In this document: one piece after another, positions 671-51,820 of the stretch
Layout: the number at the start of each line of letters is the position of its first letter
Numbering within the stretch: the first letter of the stretch is position 1
Assembly: GCA_964610305.1 (NCBI GenBank)
Contig: CAZSVL010000001.1
Span: forward strand, 6,083 to 70,082
Source: an uncultured Gammaproteobacteria bacterium
GTDB lineage: Bacteria; Patescibacteriota; Patescibacteriia; Magasanikbacterales; JBBTXJ01
DNA length: 64,000 bases
Direction of reading: 5' to 3'
Notes under the pieces: model-generated
What the model saw: only the letters and a program-made list of their open reading frames with translations
What the model was told of the DNA's origin: nothing
Databases searched by the model: none
Made by a program: the position numbers and the translations under genes

Positions 671-834
671 CCATAGCGCGGGCGTCATCCCGGAATTTGC
701 GAAGCAAATGTCCGGGATCTCACAGAAAAACGTATGCGGCGCAACGCTGCTGTTAGATTCTGAATCAAGTTCAGAATGACAAGAAGCGAAGCTTTGTAAA
801 AAAATATCACGGCCGTAAGGCCGTGGAGCTTCAT
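671..834. repeat. composite intergenic repeat, copy A (about 165 bp): type-1 hairpin, variable hairpin, conserved tail hairpin CACGGCCGTAAGGCCGTG; ends at the murJ stop codon
   Basis: Core GTCATCCCGGAATTTGCGAAGCAAATGTCCGGGATCTC at 683-720; the tail ...GACAAGAAGCGAAGC...ATCACGGCCGTAAGGCCGTGGAGCTTCATTTAAG is near-identical to 17341-17510. Confidence 0.7.
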
Positions 835-2466
835 TTAAGAAAGATGTTCCAGCGTCTCAGCTTCCTGCACGTTTTTCCATTTGAGATATCTTTTTTTAGC
901 GCCGTCTAAAATCTCTCTCATTTCTTGGCTTTTGAGCCAGAGCATTATGGCAGCATAAACAGCAAAGCCAACAATGCTAGCTCCAGAGAGTTTAAGCAAT
1001 ACACCCACAAACGTTTGCATGTTAACTATCTCCCCTAGGTAGTTTTTTGATATTTGTACAAAAAAGGCCATTATTACTCCTGCTATGCTCATTTTTATAA
1101 GAGAAACGATTATGACGCGTTCTTTAAGAGTACCCGTACGGTTATGAAGCCATACCCACAGCAAAATGGCGCTTACCACGCCTCCCAGCGCAAAAGACGC
1201 AGCAAGTGCTAATACGCCGTTTCCTGAGGCTGTTTGCTCAAAGAAAGGGATGGTTAATCGTGCAGTGCTAATAGTGACGGCTCCGCCGATAAGGCTGGCG
1301 ACAAAAGGTGTGGTGCTATCATGAAGCGCCCAGAATCCTCTAGAGAGAAGCGGCAAAAGTGCCTGCGCAAAAAGACCAATAGCAAAAAACGCTAGGCTGT
1401 CTGCGGTGCGTACGGTAGCCGCCCAATCAAAGGCGCCGCTGCCCAAAACAATGCGCACCAGCTCTGCTCTTAAAAGCAAAAAAAGTACCGTTATGGGTAC
1501 AATGAGAAGCAGTATTTTACGAACCGTGCCGGTAAGTGTTTCTATGTAATCGCTCATATTGCCATGCGCTCCAGAAGCGCAGAGTGAGGGAAACGCAGCA
1601 AGCGCAAATGAGATTCCCACAATGCCGATAGGAAAAAATTGAATGTTGTTGGCAAAATTAAAGACCGCAACGGAACCCACCGCCAAAGTGGTAGCCATGA
1701 CCGTAAGCATTAAAATAACACCCTGATAGACCAATAGGCTTGCGGTGCGCGGAACCATCATGCGTAGCAGCTTTTTTAAAGAAGGGCTCCAGCGCATCCT
1801 TGCTTGCAGAGAAAAGCCGCTGTGGTAGAGGGTAGGAACCTGAACCAATAAATGCAGTAGTGCGCCTAGCACTACCCCGTAGGCTACACCGGTTATTCCC
1901 CAATACTTTGAAAACCACAGCGCGCCAATAATAATGCCGGTGTTATACATTATGGGGCTCAGCGCGTAAACCAAAAAATATTTGAGTGATTGAAGTACGC
2001 CAGAGGCAATGGCAGAGATACCCAGGATGATAGGGCTCCAGAAGAGGATTTTTGAAAGAGAGGAAACAAGAAGTTGCTGATCGGCTGTAAATCCGGGAGC
2101 AATGAGCGCAGATAGGGGATCAGAGAAGAACATTAAAATAGCGCTGATGGCCACCACGGCGGTAAGCAGCGCGATAAAGACATTATTAGTAAATTCCCAC
2201 GCCTGCTTTTTGTTTTCTGTGTAAAGTTTGGTAAAGAGGGGGATGAAGCCAGCGGAGAGAGCGCCAGCGATAACAAGGTTATAAACAAGATCCGGAATCC
2301 TAAAGGCGGTAAAGTAAGCGTCTAGCTCAGGCCCTGCACCAAACGTGTGAGAGAGGGCGCGATCTCGTAGAACGCCCAAGAGCCTGGAGACAAAAGACGC
2401 GCCGGCTAGCAAAATGGCCGCACCCGTTATAGAGCTGGATTGTGCAGTGAAAATGCGTTTAATCAT
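835..2466 (-). CDS. murJ: lipid II flippase MurJ (MviN family)
   Basis: 543 aa, polytopic; N-terminus RIFTAQSSSITGAAILLAGASFVSRLLGVLRDRALSHTFGAGPELDAYFTAFRIPDLVYN is the canonical MurJ signature. Confidence 0.9.
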   Translation of the reverse strand: MIKRIFTAQSSSITGAAILLAGASFVSRLLGVLRDRALSHTFGAGPELDAYFTAFRIPDLVYNLVIAGALSAGFIPLFTKLYTENKKQAWEFTNNVFIALLTAVVAISAILMFFSDPLSALIAPGFTADQQLLVSSLSKILFWSPIILGISAIASGVLQSLKYFLVYALSPIMYNTGIIIGALWFSKYWGITGVAYGVVLGALLHLLVQVPTLYHSGFSLQARMRWSPSLKKLLRMMVPRTASLLVYQGVILMLTVMATTLAVGSVAVFNFANNIQFFPIGIVGISFALAAFPSLCASGAHGNMSDYIETLTGTVRKILLLIVPITVLFLLLRAELVRIVLGSGAFDWAATVRTADSLAFFAIGLFAQALLPLLSRGFWALHDSTTPFVASLIGGAVTISTARLTIPFFEQTASGNGVLALAASFALGGVVSAILLWVWLHNRTGTLKERVIIVSLIKMSIAGVIMAFFVQISKNYLGEIVNMQTFVGVLLKLSGASIVGFAVYAAIMLWLKSQEMREILDGAKKRYLKWKNVQEAETLEHLS

Positions 2467-5158: not shown

Positions 5159-5174
5159 TGTTTTCAATATTTAT

Positions 5175-5207
5175 GTCATCCCGGGCTTGACCCGGGATCT
5201 CAAGAAC
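5175..5207 (+). repeat. type-2 hairpin repeat GTCATCCCGGGCTTGACCCGGGATCTCAAGAAC, immediately upstream of the GIY-YIG start codon
   Basis: Same GTCATCCCGG...CCGGGATCTC ends as the other copies; its reverse complement occurs at 17422-17454. Confidence 0.7.
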
Positions 5208-5504
5208 ATGAAACAATATTACGTCTACATCTTAACCAACCATACTAAAACGGTACTATACGTAGGTGTAACAAGTGACTTGATAAAAAGAGTGTGGCAA
5301 CATCGGCAAATGGTCGTAGAGGGATTTAGTAGAGAATACAAATTAGGGACCCTTGTTTACTTTGAAGTGCATCAAAATGTAAAAGAGGCCATCAAAAGAG
5401 AGAAGAGAATCAAAAAGTGGAAGCGTAAGTGGAAGGAGGAATTAATTGCGAGAGATAATCAAAATTGGGAGGATCTCTATCAGAGATTGCTGGATAGGCG
5501 TTGA
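5208..5504 (+). CDS. GIY-YIG nuclease-domain protein (about 98 aa)
   Basis: KQYYVYILTNHTKTVLYVGVTSDLIKRVWQHRQ matches the GIY-x(9-11)-YIG...R...H/E pattern; the ORF-track start at 5130 would read through the repeat hairpin, so the ATG at 5208 is preferred. Confidence 0.8.
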   Translation: MKQYYVYILTNHTKTVLYVGVTSDLIKRVWQHRQMVVEGFSREYKLGTLVYFEVHQNVKEAIKREKRIKKWKRKWKEELIARDNQNWEDLYQRLLDRR

Positions 5505-5516
5505 TTCTTGAGATCC

Positions 5517-5560
5517 CGGATATTTTGCTCTGCAAAATTCCGGGATGACAGTATTGGTGT
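5517..5560 (-). repeat. type-1 hairpin repeat in inverted orientation, 12 nt after the GIY-YIG stop
   Basis: CTTGAGATCCCGGATATTTTGCTCTGCAAAATTCCGGGATGACAG is the reverse complement of the core at 683-720, 17355-17394 and 41545-41584. Confidence 0.7.
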
Positions 5561-17295: not shown

Positions 17296-17340
17296 TACCC
17301 CAGTTTCTGGGGTTTTTTTATTCATCGCGAGAAAAACCCG

Positions 17341-17503
17341 GCCGCGGCGCGGGCGTCATCCCGGAATTTTGCGCAGCAAAATATCCGGGATCTCAAGAAC
17401 GCTTTGCCGCAGGTGTTTTTACTTGAGATCCCGGGTCAAGCCCGGGATGACAAGATGCGAAGCATTTTAGAAAAAGATACCACGGCCGTGAGGCCGTGGA
17501 GTT
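17341..17503. repeat. composite intergenic repeat, copy B (about 165 bp), twin of 671-834; ends at the dinB stop codon
   Basis: Type-1 hairpin 17355-17394, type-2 hairpin (rev) 17422-17454, tail ...GACAAGATGCGAAGC...ACCACGGCCGTGAGGCCGTGGAGTTTCATTTAAG. Confidence 0.7.
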
Positions 17504-18820
17504 TCATTTAAGAGGTCTCGCTAGAAGAGGAATTCCAATACGCTGCCTCAACGTTTCTCCTTTAAAGAGGGTTTTTTTACGCAGGCCAGACTCATGGCGT
17601 TCGTGCGTGCCGTCTGGTCCTTTTTGCACTTTTTGTGCGGCGCCCATAAAGACGGTGTGTTTGCCGTATTTTTTGTCTAAATCATCCACGGCGTCAAAAA
17701 TCCTATCTAATTTATGGGTGCGATTAGTGTCAGAGAATAAATCTAGCTGCACCGTTTTCTCATCTTTTAGTTTGTGAAGAGCTACGCTGGTGGATCTATA
17801 AAAGGTGTCTTTTTTAAAGAGTTTGTCATACGCTGCTCGTGCAGCGGCTATAACATCTACGGGGTTATTGCTGGCATGGGCCAATGTAACAGATGCGCCG
17901 CGTCTACTAAAGTTTTTTTTGTGGAGCGCAAAGGTAACCTTTGGGCATACTAAATTCATGCGCCTGGCTTTTATACACGCGTTTTCTATATTTCTACATA
18001 GATGCGCAAAGACCAGCTCTTTATCTGAGCTGCTAGGAGAGAAGGTTTTTTTCTTACGAATAGATTGGCGTGGCTTGGGTGGCGCATCGGTAACGGAGTA
18101 TATCAGCCGTCCGTTAAGCTCATGCCAAATTTCCTGGTGAGGTTTAGTAAGATAGCGCATGACCCAGTCTTCATCCTTTTTTGCGAGAGTTAGTGCGTCG
18201 CGAATGCCCATAATACGCAGATATTCATGTGTACGCGGACCAATGCCCCATATATCTTTTGGATGTGTGTCTTTAAGGAATTCATGAATTTTGCGGCCGG
18301 GAATTTGCGTGATGCCAAAAGGTTTTTTCCACTTGCTGGCCACTTTTGAAAGTACTTTTGTGGGAGCCAAACCTAAGGAAAACGTCATGCCCAGCTCTTT
18401 GTAAAGTGTATCCTGCAGCGTTTTAAGAATTTTAGGAAAGCTCATGCGTAGTGGTCTGCGCATGCCGGTGAGGTCCGCAAAGCATTCATCTATGCTGTAT
18501 TCTTCAACGGTGTGTGTGTACCGGCGGACAATATCAAAAAAACGCTGAGAAAAGAGGCTGTAACTTTCATAATCTGAAGGAACAAAAATAACATCGGGGC
18601 AGAGCTTTTTAATAGTGTGATATGGCATGGCGCGCGTAACGCCCGCGGCTTTTGCCTCATAAGAAATAGAGGCTGCAATACCGCGTTCTTTTCCGGTAAT
18701 AACGGGCTTACCCTTCCACGCAGGATTAAGCGCTTGCTCGCAAGAAGCAAAAAAAGCATCGCCATCTATATGCAAAATGGCGCGTGGATAAGAGCTAAGC
18801 ATGAGTGGTTGGGTAGGCAT
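17504..18820 (-). CDS. dinB: Y-family DNA polymerase IV (DinB)
   Basis: ILHIDGDAFFASCEQALNP catalytic N-terminus, SIDECFADLTG, little-finger region; start taken at the MPTQPL ATG. Confidence 0.85.
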   Translation of the reverse strand: MPTQPLMLSSYPRAILHIDGDAFFASCEQALNPAWKGKPVITGKERGIAASISYEAKAAGVTRAMPYHTIKKLCPDVIFVPSDYESYSLFSQRFFDIVRRYTHTVEEYSIDECFADLTGMRRPLRMSFPKILKTLQDTLYKELGMTFSLGLAPTKVLSKVASKWKKPFGITQIPGRKIHEFLKDTHPKDIWGIGPRTHEYLRIMGIRDALTLAKKDEDWVMRYLTKPHQEIWHELNGRLIYSVTDAPPKPRQSIRKKKTFSPSSSDKELVFAHLCRNIENACIKARRMNLVCPKVTFALHKKNFSRRGASVTLAHASNNPVDVIAAARAAYDKLFKKDTFYRSTSVALHKLKDEKTVQLDLFSDTNRTHKLDRIFDAVDDLDKKYGKHTVFMGAAQKVQKGPDGTHERHESGLRKKTLFKGETLRQRIGIPLLARPLK

Positions 18821-18915: not shown

Positions 18916-19314
18916 TTATATAAAACTTTTAATTTTTTTCTTTATTTCTTCGAATTCATCTTTTGGTAGCGTACGGATTTTTCTTAATAAACGTTTGGTG
19001 CTGATTAGTTTTAATTGCGAGAGGATAAGTGTGTAAGTCTTATTTTTGTATATCGTTTCATGATAATATTTTCCTTGTTTAATTTTAGTACTTAACGGGA
19101 TTACCCATAAAAGATGCGGATTAAAACCTTTTAGAACAAGGGCAGGTCTTTGAAATGAGGCACCTTTTCCGTCCTGCTCGTGGCCCAAGTTTACTCCAAA
19201 ACTACACCACCAAATTTCTCGTTTTTGATAGAAGATAGTAGATCCTTTAATTTTTTGTTGCAGTCGTATTTTTAGCTTTGTCCATTGAACTATCTCATTT
19301 ATTTTTTTACTCAT
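18916..19314 (-). CDS. PemK/MazF-family endoribonuclease toxin-like protein (132 aa) with no adjacent antitoxin
   Basis: REIWWCSFGVNLGHEQDGK...RPALVL, then IPLSTK and a C-terminal helix, parallel the PemK/MazF motifs (GEIWLVSLDPTAGHEQQGTRPVLIV...P.T...); lies between lexA and dinB. Confidence 0.6.
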   Translation of the reverse strand: MSKKINEIVQWTKLKIRLQQKIKGSTIFYQKREIWWCSFGVNLGHEQDGKGASFQRPALVLKGFNPHLLWVIPLSTKIKQGKYYHETIYKNKTYTLILSQLKLISTKRLLRKIRTLPKDEFEEIKKKIKSFI

Positions 19315-19319
19315 ACCAG

Positions 19320-19880
19320 CTAGTACTTCCGCACCACACCAATAACCACCGCTGCAATATTAAGCTCTTCTTCTGGAATTATATTTTCAAATGATTTATT
19401 TTCTGCTTGCAGATACACTTTTTTTCCAGACTTGCGTAGGCGTTTAAGGGTCCATGCGTGGTCCACCTCTGCAATAACAATGTCTCCGTCTGTGGCGCTG
19501 CGCCCGCGCTCTGCCAGCACCATATCTCCTGGCATAATGCCCGCCTCAGACATACTCATGCCCGATACTTTAAGCATAAACGTACTCTCTGGACGCTCCA
19601 GTAGCCATTGATCCAAGCTAAGGGTGTCCACGAGCTCTTCTTCTGCGGCAGAGGGAAATCCTGCTTCTATGGATCCTAAAACCGCCAGCTCTCCCAATCG
19701 ATGGGGGAGCAGCTTGCCTTGCGTGTCCTTTTTTAAAAACCCTTCATCTAAAAGTTTGCGTACCACCTTATAAGCCGCGTTTTTAGATTTAAACCCAAGC
19801 AGCTGCGCAATTTCACCGTAGCTGGGCATGCGTCTGTTTTTTTTATAAAACGAATGAATTTTATGAAGATGTTTTGGCAT
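19320..19880 (-). CDS. lexA: LexA repressor (S24 peptidase)
   Basis: N-terminal winged HTH (SYGEIAQLLGFKSKNAAYKVVRKL), AV^LG cleavage region, Ser (VSGMSMSEAG) and Lys (WTLKRL) catalytic dyad. Confidence 0.9.
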   Translation of the reverse strand: MPKHLHKIHSFYKKNRRMPSYGEIAQLLGFKSKNAAYKVVRKLLDEGFLKKDTQGKLLPHRLGELAVLGSIEAGFPSAAEEELVDTLSLDQWLLERPESTFMLKVSGMSMSEAGIMPGDMVLAERGRSATDGDIVIAEVDHAWTLKRLRKSGKKVYLQAENKSFENIIPEEELNIAAVVIGVVRKY

Positions 19881-33118: not shown

Positions 33119-33162
33119 CTTGAGATCCCGGATATTTTGCTTCACAAAATTCCGGGAGACAG
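33119..33162 (-). repeat. solo type-1 hairpin repeat (variant ...CCGGGAGACAG)
   Basis: CTTGAGATCCCGGATATTTTGCTTCACAAAATTCCGGGAGACAG; followed by a terminator-like hairpin at 33176-33203. Confidence 0.65.
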
Positions 33163-35650: not shown

Positions 35651-35727
35651 GTGAGATCCCGGATATTTTGCTCCGCAAAATTCCGGGATGACGTGGCGGA
35701 TGATTCCCAAAATTTCGGGATGACAAG
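35651..35727 (-). repeat. type-1 hairpin repeat plus an adjacent partial second copy
   Basis: GTGAGATCCCGGATATTTTGCTCCGCAAAATTCCGGGATGAC, then GATTCCCAAAATTTCGGGATGACAAG. Confidence 0.65.
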
Positions 35728-35735
35728 ATAAAAGT

Positions 35736-41507: not shown

Positions 41508-41544
41508 TTGTGGTATAATAACGGCACGCTCAAAGGGTGCGACT

Positions 41545-41584
41545 GTCATCCCGGAATTTTGCGAAGCAAAATATCCGGGATCTC
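41545..41584 (+). repeat. solo type-1 hairpin repeat
   Basis: GTCATCCCGGAATTTTGCGAAGCAAAATATCCGGGATCTC, essentially identical to 17355-17394. Confidence 0.7.
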
Positions 41585-51142: not shown

Positions 51143-51171
51143 TTGACAGAAATACGCAGCCTTGATATAGT
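51143..51171 (+). promoter_or_regulatory. rplJ promoter TTGACA-N17-TATAGT
   Basis: TTGACA at 51143-48, TATAGT at 51166-71. Confidence 0.5.
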
Positions 51172-51177
51172 ATGCGC

Positions 51178-51295
51178 ACCACAGACTGCAGCAGCCTTTT
51201 AGGCTTAATATGCTGCATAGGTAAAAATACTCGCCAAAGTGGCGAGACGGTCGATTTTTTGCCAATCTGTGTATTTCCACAGATTATTTTAATTT
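51178..51295 (+). ncRNA. ribosomal protein L10 (rplJ) leader, candidate autoregulatory structure
   Basis: About 118-nt 5' UTR with hairpins CGCCAAAGTGGCG and CAATCTGTGTATTTCCACAGATTATT. Confidence 0.35.
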
Positions 51296-51820
51296 ATGGC
51301 TAAAACAAAAGAGCAAAAAGAGCAGATTGTAGCACGTCTCAAAAGTGATTTTGAGCGGGCCAAGTCTGTTGTATTTGCGAATTTTCAAGGACTTAGTGTA
51401 GCTGAGGCTGAAGAGCTTCGCGGTAAGGCCAGAGAGTCTGGCGTTGGCGTATATGTTGCCAAAAAGACACTGCTTGAGCGCGCTGCTAAAGAGGCAGAGC
51501 TAGGAGATGTTTCTCCACGAGCTTTTGCTGGTGGAGTGGCAACCTTCTTTGGTTTTGAGGATGAAGTTGCTCCTGCCCGAATCGTTCATGAATTCTCTAA
51601 GGATCATGAAGTGGTTGAAATTGTGGGCGGAACCATGGAAGGTTCAGCTATTGCCGTAGAGCAGATTAAGGCACTTGCGTTGCTGCCAGGCAAGCAGGAA
51701 TTACTTGGCAAGCTTGTGGGCACACTTAACGCGCCGGTATCTGGCTTTGCCAATGTGCTCGCCGGAAACGTGCGTGGTTTGGTAACGGTTCTTGATGGAA
51801 TTCGCGATCAAAAAGCTTAA
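51296..51820 (+). CDS. rplJ: 50S ribosomal protein L10
   Basis: [42 protein letters not shown]. Confidence 0.9.

Follow-up and report, generated by a model that had tools for sequence, protein, structure and literature searches.

How can one repeat come to end at the stop codons of two unrelated genes? The question is raised by a 64,000-nt stretch of contig CAZSVL010000001.1 (GCA_964610305.1), hereafter the window, to which all coordinates refer. Here a composite, hairpin-rich repeat adjoins the 3' ends of murJ and of a dinB-like polymerase gene, both of which run convergently towards it. The target rule of a single-strand transposon, whose target and right terminus both complement stop codons, accounts for this odd pattern. 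The composite is very probably a non-autonomous derivative of the IS200/IS605 family of insertion sequences (IS), of the mini-IS or PATE kind, in which a doublet of hairpins has replaced the transposase gene.

Insertion sites of the two copies

Copy A occupies 651-834 (184 bp) and copy B 17322-17507 (186 bp), both on the plus strand, on which all further features lie unless a minus sign is given. The initial annotation had correctly paired the two loci, but the limits of the repeat are wider than it proposed. An alignment of 640-860 with 17310-17540 yields 83% column identity, and the copies differ from each other by about 15%. The window holds only these two. Three of their motifs have exactly two occurrences each in the 64 kb, namely the tail hairpin CACGGCCGTRAGGCCGTGGAG (0 expected by chance), the GACAAGA(A/T)GCGAAGC block GATGACAAGAWGCGAAGC (0.06 expected) and the left-end motif TTATTCAWCGCRAGAAAA (0.37 expected). 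As single-stranded DNA each copy folds into three strong hairpins, as had been described, with energies of -52.9 kcal/mol (z = -7.6) and -38.3 kcal/mol (z = -5.2) against dinucleotide shuffles. The first two hairpins are not peculiar to the composite, however, as type 1 is present six times and type 2 twice in the window.

On the host side, the two copies have in common a T-tract with TTTAT on the left and TTAAGA on the right. The plus-strand gene upstream has a terminator-like hairpin, and the homology sets in at the T-tract behind it. At locus A (620-650), a terminator scan places this hairpin at 620-641, followed by a T7 tract (642-648) and the putative target TTTAT (646-650); at locus B (17297-17321), the hairpin at 17297-17313 is followed by a T7 tract and the putative target TTTAT at 17317-17321. 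GC skew is uniformly positive across the window, and the top strand of both copies lies on the G-rich strand (n = 2).

Protein searches of the ENA and Logan metagenomes returned one close relative, whose MurJ is 85% identical (contig L150) and whose DinB is 91% identical (contig L149). Its murJ site is empty. L150 reads ...TTATCC TAA ACAAAAAA-hairpin, where the window reads ...CTTTCT TAA [184 nt] ATAAAAAAA-hairpin; in the relative the colinear host hairpin is followed by TTTTTTGT, and the window with 651-834 removed aligns colinearly with L150 through the junction. Copy A was thus inserted 3' of TTTAT, in the T-tract of a host terminator, and no target duplication accompanies it. Insertion in this manner is the signature of the IS200/IS605 family.

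The dinB junction of the relative is filled. There, in the same orientation as copy B, L149 carries a full-length IS200 whose transposase gene tnpA encodes 142 aa, with 125 bits against NF033573 (cut-off 55) and 29 bits against REP_Tyr_transpos (cut-off 80). The right end of this element abuts dinB, and its terminus again makes the dinB TGA. Whether the L149 element and copy B share this junction by common descent or by recurrent insertion cannot be told apart.

These sites clarify how the repeat relates to the two stop codons. The terminal TTA of the tail had been taken as the stop of both genes, which holds for murJ and fails for dinB. The stop of murJ (835-2466, minus strand; Pfam MurJ, 4e-80) is the TAA at 835-837, which directly abuts the right end and, by comparison with the empty site, is host sequence just outside the element. 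The stop of the dinB-like Y-family polymerase gene (17504-18820, minus strand; Pfam IMS and IMS_C) is a TGA, the complement of TCA at 17504-17506, which lies inside the terminal TTCAT of the element, four nucleotides deeper in the repeat than the TTA at 17508-17510, which is not in frame. Comparison of the C-termini with those of relatives, which had been suggested as a way to detect changes made by the insertion, revealed none. The MurJ of the relative has the same C-terminus, ...ETLEHLS*, and DinB homologues have C-termini of equal length, so the insertion neither truncates nor extends DinB. The original proposal that the element inserts at or creates stop codons was therefore largely right, in that the element makes the dinB stop in the window as well as in the relative.

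The surroundings of both genes differ between the two genomes. Between murJ and an MS-channel gene, where the relative has an intact 120-aa gene (L150 11738-12100), the window at about 100-600 holds a decayed, frame-broken remnant, with two terminator-like hairpins (about 424-470 and 551-563) more than L150. At dinB, genes for a PemK-like toxin and a LexA-like S24 peptidase are found directly upstream in both genomes (18916-19880; L149 8990-9953); the neighbourhood is conserved on this side, and synteny is broken at the IS on the other.

The IS200 shell and its target

The right end (RE) consists of the hairpin CACGGCCGTRAGGCCGTG followed by a terminal TTCAT, with the boundary form ...GGCCGTGGAGYTTCAT|, and is intact in both copies. 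In copy A (808-834) the subterminal hairpin CACGGCCGTAAGGCCGTG spans 808-825 and the terminal GAGCTTCAT 826-834 (z = -4.1; terminator-like on the minus strand); in copy B (17480-17507) the hairpin CCACGGCCGTGAGGCCGTGG spans 17480-17499 and the terminal AGTTTCAT 17500-17507 (z = -5.7). A scan for the exact pattern of the 21-nt hairpin, with one genome per species, located it at 87 loci in other genomes; by our own estimate (20 specified bases, 596 Gb), chance alone would give about 1. Most of these belong to metagenome-assembled genomes (MAGs) of Patescibacteria, the Candidate Phyla Radiation (CPR), with several Gammaproteobacteria MAGs and one Omnitrophota chromosome that bears at least 9 copies; two of the 87 are unrelated CRISPR arrays. 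A scan of viral contigs for the hairpin gave 0 matches. When aligned on the motif, the loci share (A)GA(A/T/G)(A/G)C-hairpin-GAG-YTTCAY, and similarity drops sharply 6 nt past the motif, at YTTCAY.

Within genomes the repeated unit measures 128 bp in a Paceibacterota MAG, 164 bp in a Peribacteria MAG and 574 bp in the Omnitrophota chromosome, where the copies are about 100% identical. The 574-bp unit comprises a left-end (LE) hairpin CCACGGCCATGAGGCCGTGG, a gene for a 142-aa Y1 transposase (Pfam Y1_Tnp PF01797, 1.6e-28) and the tail as its RE. The same layout is found in elements at the loci L005, L025 and L075, which encode Y1_Tnp proteins (PF01797, about 1e-28). In the transposase-bearing elements the tail begins 10-36 nt after the tnpA stop, and the sequence GGACAAGCGAAGCTTG that precedes it in L075, L001 and L005 encodes the TnpA C-terminus ...GQAKL... 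Its homologue in the composite is GACAAGAAGCGAAGCTTTGTAA, a relic of about 20 nt of the tnpA 3' end that, together with the linker to the RE, covers 778-807 in copy A and, by alignment to copy A, 17449-17479 in copy B. Since the tail is homologous to both the tnpA 3' end and the RE of transposase-bearing elements, it is a relic of an IS200-group element.

The left side of the composite points to the same family. The LE remnant of copy A (651-683) starts with TCAACGCAAGAAAA and is homologous to the LE of copy B and to those of intact IS200 elements. That of copy B (17322-17354), TCATCGCGAGAAAAACCCGGCC, closely resembles the Omnitrophota IS200 LE TATCGCGAAAAAACCACGGCC, the match being close over its first 22 nt. 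The form in the window is TCA(A/T)CGC(A/G)AGAAAA... Intact IS200 LEs fold well (z = -4.7 and -3.3), in contrast to the LE hairpin of the composite, which is weak in copy B and gone in copy A. We take the hairpin to have decayed once the copies were inserted, which makes both read as old, immobile relics, and any mobility must have preceded this decay.

Some further occurrences of the clade and of its hairpin deserve mention. The 164-bp unit of the Peribacteria MAG MFYJ01 is a tnpA-less derivative of the same IS200 clade, present at no fewer than 6 sites (L024, L038, L049, L074, L077 and L082). At this unit the left flank terminates in (T/G)TCAC and the right end in CTTCAC, so that the target/terminus motif is shifted from TYAT to TCAC, and the guide base from A to G. 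In the CRISPR arrays of two Actinomycetota MAGs (L058 4765-5810 and L019 46-142), the repeats contain the identical 21-nt hairpin CACGGCCGTGAGGCCGTGGAG, and Rfam gives a weak CRISPR-DR33 match on the right end in the window (E = 0.59). This likeness probably represents convergence on a stable GC hairpin.

With the boundaries defined, the target can be examined across genomes. The LE flank is TTTAT| or a one-base variant of it in all of the 20 junctions with defined boundaries, and at 11 of these a terminator-like hairpin ends at most 14 nt upstream, compared with 1.4% at random positions (p = 6e-16). A 2026 survey likewise reported terminator-like sequences to be strongly over-represented immediately upstream of IS200/IS605 elements. 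Furthermore, the nucleotide that adjoins the RE hairpin foot on its 5' side varies in step with the final base of the element: of 25 distinct variants, 14 pair A with T and 9 pair G with C, with 2 exceptions (Fisher p = 8e-6 on a 2x2 table of 24 variants, one exception, T/T, being omitted). A guide tetranucleotide that reads the cleavage site, as it does in IS608, would produce such covariation. By this analogy the correlation fits a cleavage site specified by a guide located 5' of the hairpin foot.

The suspicion that the tail lies preferentially at the 3' ends of genes is borne out by 66 right ends in other genomes. Counting open reading frames (ORFs) of at least 100 codons, a convergent stop lies within -8 to +60 nt of the right end in 24 of them, against a background of 8.3%. 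It falls at -4 to 0 nt in 13, and in 9 the TGA of the element itself is the stop. Among all TTTAT motifs in these loci, the share that overlaps such a stop is only 2.5-3% (p = 4e-5 and 7e-8), so the excess reflects more than the motif alone and is probably due to the purging of intragenic insertions together with the preference for terminators. The genes concerned are bona fide and include rplT (twice), ddl, typA, uppP and genes for PBP1A, an S1-domain protein and a response regulator. On the opposite strand, TTTAT reads A-TAA-A and TTCAT reads A-TGA-A. As both complement stop contexts, insertion on the stop of a convergent gene regenerates a stop. The position at gene ends is thus probably a matter of target choice and of selection against intragenic insertions.

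Inner hairpins and the GIY-YIG cassette

The interior of the shell is of different character. In copy A, the type-1 hairpin (684-722) has the form GTCAT-CCCGGAATTTGC...GCAAATGTCCGGG-ATCTCA, an extended Ssn-related motif (SRM), and hairpin 2 (753-780, minus strand) reads GTCAT-TCTGAAC-TTGAT-TCAGAAT, an SRM-like variant. In copy B, a pattern search locates the type-1 hairpin at 17355-17395, and the type-2 hairpin TGTCATCCCGGGCTTGACCCGGGATCT occupies 17424-17452 on the minus strand. In the Ssn system as published (Chenal et al. 2025; PMC11893778), ssnA genes are flanked by NTS or SRM hairpins (NTS consensus CGTCATTCCCGCGMAVGCGGGAATCYRG), immediately 5' of which SsnA cleaves single-stranded DNA. 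As in NTS and SRM, all hairpin copies of the window have a GTCAT 5' flank and an A(T/C)C 3' flank.

The published SRM search sequence, HGTCWYN(0-2)YYVSBRHN(0-5)WNVSBRGN(0-2)RNCYNB, has 0 strict matches in the window, and the hairpins are for this reason called SRM-like only. Without its last two positions it matches the 2 type-2 hairpins, that of copy B included, and when relaxed for type 1 by also allowing loops of up to 25 nt it gives 6 matches, where 0.9 are expected.

A cassette at 5174-5550 combines both hairpin types with a gene. It consists of a type-2 hairpin (5174-5200), a 98-aa single-domain ORF (5208-5504; Pfam GIY-YIG, 4e-15) and a type-1 hairpin (5509-5550, minus strand). The encoded protein has no match in NCBIfam, and its matches in the PDB, to UPF0213 proteins, are weak. 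Read on the other strand, the hairpin pair has the order and orientation seen in the composite, and the cassette is the probable source of the inner pair. On the likeness of these sequences, we assign the doublet to the SRM-like hairpins and regard the GIY-YIG gene as a candidate ssnA.

Hairpin 2 of copy A and the type-2 hairpin of copy B differ by four compensatory transition pairs. As a sign of selection these were rejected: all eight changes are GC-to-AT transitions, and a similar variant, GTCATCCTGAACTTGATTCAGGATC, exists in another genome (L062). By our own estimate, four changes per arm would leave the pairing perfect with a chance of about 1 in 15. The pairs are no more than suggestive, and it is just as likely that another SRM variant took the place of the original one. 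Matches to GTCATCCCGG in L078 were discarded as chance matches inside genes.

Hairpins of this kind are also found on their own. Solitary type-1 SRM-like hairpins lie at 33121-33161 (minus), 35652-35693 (minus), 35705-35725 and 41544-41583, all intergenic and near gene ends or starts. At 35652-35730, type 1 is followed by a degenerate second hairpin ending in GGGATGACAAGAT, with the junction sequence of the composite. In a Logan assembly of the same organism, a 2.7-kb contig (L088) stops precisely at the type-2 hairpin of the 5174-5550 cassette. The relative has a fully symmetric SRM-like hairpin, GTCATCCCGGATAATTCGCTTTGCGAATTATCCGGGATGAC, with GTCAT on both strands, adjoining a beta-CASP gene (L150 7822-7862). 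Outside these genomes, a scan of JGI data detected the type-1 core in 60 otherwise unrelated, mostly GC-rich metagenome contigs. Most of 62 metagenome copies of type 1 carry (C/T)GTCAT as 5' flank and A(C/T)CCAG as 3' flank. At the 60 loci we observed no adjoining IS200 end, no RE hairpin and no match to the window beyond about 40-50 nt.

Proposed origin, alternatives and known systems

We postulate that the mosaic formed once, when an inverted doublet of SRM-like hairpins replaced tnpA, and that a Y1 (HUH) TnpA acting in trans subsequently copied it via the single-strand 'peel and paste' route. Insertion would have occurred 3' of TTTAT without target duplication, the A-rich tetranucleotide (AAAA) 5' of the LE hairpin being, by analogy with IS608, the likely guide that reads the T-rich target TTAT. 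Such targets would be offered by the T-tract right after intrinsic terminators, where insertion precisely on the stop of a convergent gene ending ...AAA TAA A would leave the last residue of its product unchanged. For dinB, this predicts AAA TAA before the insertion, AAA TGA now, and an empty site of the form ...GGGGTTTTTTTAT|TTAAGAGG; at murJ, the stop would have lain one base outside the insertion point and stayed untouched. Both copies are now probably immobile fossils. As a secondary effect, the intact RE hairpin with its T-run may today act as a proximal terminator of murJ and dinB.

Several points weigh against this origin as an IS200-family derivative. There are only two copies to work from, and tblastn detected no tnpA in the 64-kb window. 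The LE hairpin is unformed in both copies (z = 0.39 in copy A, 0.06 in copy B). The LE and the far flank of the L149 IS are non-homologous to copy B. The flanks share 15 nt (TTTTTTTAT and TTAAGA), which exceeds what a 5-nt target accounts for; a T at +1 in 36 of 45 right-end flanks accounts for the shared TT of TTAAGA, and AAGA has no explanation. The composite was not found in the JGI metagenomes by the tail pattern GACAAGAWGCGAAGC...CACGGCCGT (0 matches), nor among the 60 type-1 metagenome loci. Finally, the covariation and the census counts carry no correction for relatedness among the elements.

The nesting of an SRM doublet in an IS200 shell was seen nowhere else in these two sets, the JGI tail-pattern scan and the type-1 loci, and is most simply a lineage-specific accident. 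There is an outside chance that it is more than this. The IS200 ends and the Ssn-target hairpins may form a cooperative hybrid element, in which an SRM hairpin could replace the lost LE hairpin or Ssn nicking could promote excision. Alternatively, the IS200 clade with the CACGGCCGTNAGGCCGTG hairpin may have evolved stop-context targeting, its TTTAT/TTCAT pair landing on AAA-TAA-A stops next to terminators and re-supplying both stop and terminator. This might amount to a 'scarless' safe-harbour strategy in gene-dense CPR genomes, with host selection keeping the RE hairpin after the element dies.

The initial annotation had also offered a portable terminator or stabiliser of mRNA 3' ends. That the composite is mainly a selected device of this sort for convergent genes is improbable, although parts of the sequence would suit it. 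Read on the minus strand, the RE hairpin of copy A (825-808) is followed by ATATTTTTTT and that of copy B (17499-17480) by TATCTTTTTC, which fits the terminator consensus just after the stops, and in both copies the RE hairpin has stayed perfect, in contrast to the decayed LE hairpin. The same hairpin, however, forms the right end of transposase-bearing IS200 elements in many phyla, the target motif explains the placement, and at the empty site the murJ of the relative is directly followed by a host hairpin and does without the element. A remnant of an IS200-family transposon with nested hairpins describes the composite better than a dedicated terminator.

Spread of the whole unit by the Ssn (GIY-YIG) single-strand nuclease system, with the IS200-like ends as incidental passengers, is very improbable. 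Two of the three hairpins are SRM-like, and 12 kb away the same pair of hairpins recurs in an ssnA-like cassette. Yet the insertion boundaries at the empty site coincide with the IS200 LE and RE rather than with the SRM hairpins, type-1 hairpins at other sites stand alone, as units of about 40 nt that have no RE hairpin in their vicinity, and the portion of the published account used here describes Ssn as a nuclease, not as a transposase.

We attach still less credence to two further readings. A REP/BIME or REPIN-type element mobilised by a RAYT (TnpA-REP) would agree with a hairpin mosaic that includes an inverted doublet, RAYTs being Y1 enzymes related to the IS200 TnpA. By the scores given above, however, the linked transposases are IS200 equivalogs that stay under the REP_Tyr_transpos cut-off, the 64-kb window holds no Y1 gene, and the inner doublet with its GTCAT...ATC signature flanks a GIY-YIG gene, not a RAYT. 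A small RNA or small protein encoded by the repeat is just as doubtful. Both copies fold strongly, an ATG overlaps each stop (TAAATG in copy A, AATGA in copy B) and copy A has a 49-codon ORF at 685-834 (minus strand). Against this, no Rfam family beyond chance-level matches was found at either locus even at E <= 1, the hairpins are explained as DNA-level sites, and the small ORF is ruled out by a 2-nt indel between the copies that breaks the frame after about 14 codons.

The least credible reading of all derives the similarity from a local duplication of a segment, which the initial annotation had considered, or from gene conversion between the loci: only two copies in the window and the shared TTTTTTTAT and TTAAGA would suit it, but it is all but excluded by the exact empty site in the relative, by the unrelated flanking genes, by similarity that ends within a few bases on each side and by boundaries that coincide with IS200 elements of dozens of other genomes.

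Elsewhere in the window, an Rfam search at gathering thresholds identified only a ribosomal protein L10 leader (51161-51300; RF00557, 51 bits, above the gathering score), which places the rplJ region within it, and a tRNA scan of the window detected no tRNA or tmRNA genes.

The identification of the composite as an IS200-family derivative has practical consequences. For annotators of CPR and other compact genomes, the RE hairpin CACGGCCGTNAGGCCGTGGAG-YTTCAY marks both IS200 elements and their gene-less relics. The nine right ends that supply the stop of a neighbouring gene do so even for the essential genes rplT, ddl and typA. The SRM-like hairpins and the candidate ssnA gene would extend the Ssn-related motifs to a CPR genome.

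The element is explained by known families, and the current understanding of these families is unchanged. Its closest counterparts are the mini-IS605 and mini-IS606 elements of H. pylori, in which 100-150 bp of each end are retained, the LE lies beside TTTAA or TTAT and copies diverge by 10-20%, as well as the PATEs. Common to all of them are a short element made of only the two ends of an IS200/IS605 member, an LE beside the target (TTAT for IS606), and the lack of terminal inverted repeats and of target duplication. The composite differs from these in its parent, a tnpA-only IS200-group element of CPR bacteria, in the foreign hairpin doublet that occupies its interior and in the decay of its LE hairpin.

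The intact relatives of the clade resemble IS200 of Salmonella and IS1541 of Yersinia, minimal elements of 0.6-0.7 kb with a single Y1 tnpA and, as LE hairpin, a bidirectional terminator. Unlike these, the copies of the window are without tnpA. The hairpin CACGGCCGTRAGGCCGTG, the TTTAT target and the regeneration of stops are characterised here for the CPR/Omnitrophota clade, not for the enterobacterial elements. With IS608 and ISDra2 the clade shares subterminal hairpins, a putative guide tetranucleotide 5' of the hairpin foot and insertion 3' of a short target. IS608 and ISDra2 also prefer the lagging-strand template, a bias of the IS200/IS605 family that the strand of both copies fits, though with n = 2. 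In contrast to the clade described here, which is known from sequence, both carry tnpB, and their targets are TTAC (IS608) and TTGAT (ISDra2).

REPINs and BIMEs are comparable in their inverted hairpin doublets, in forming mosaic intergenic repeats and in the Y1-type enzymes that act on single-stranded hairpins; here, by contrast, there is no RAYT, the associated transposases are IS200 equivalogs and the doublet is of the Ssn kind. To the Ssn system itself, the likeness lies in the GTCAT 5' and ATC 3' flanks of the hairpins, in their many intergenic copies and in the inverted copies that flank a single-domain GIY-YIG gene (about 95 aa) on either side. The type-1 stem and loop, on the other hand, are much longer than the search sequence permits, its last position fails in both types, and the doublet is here nested inside an IS200 shell.

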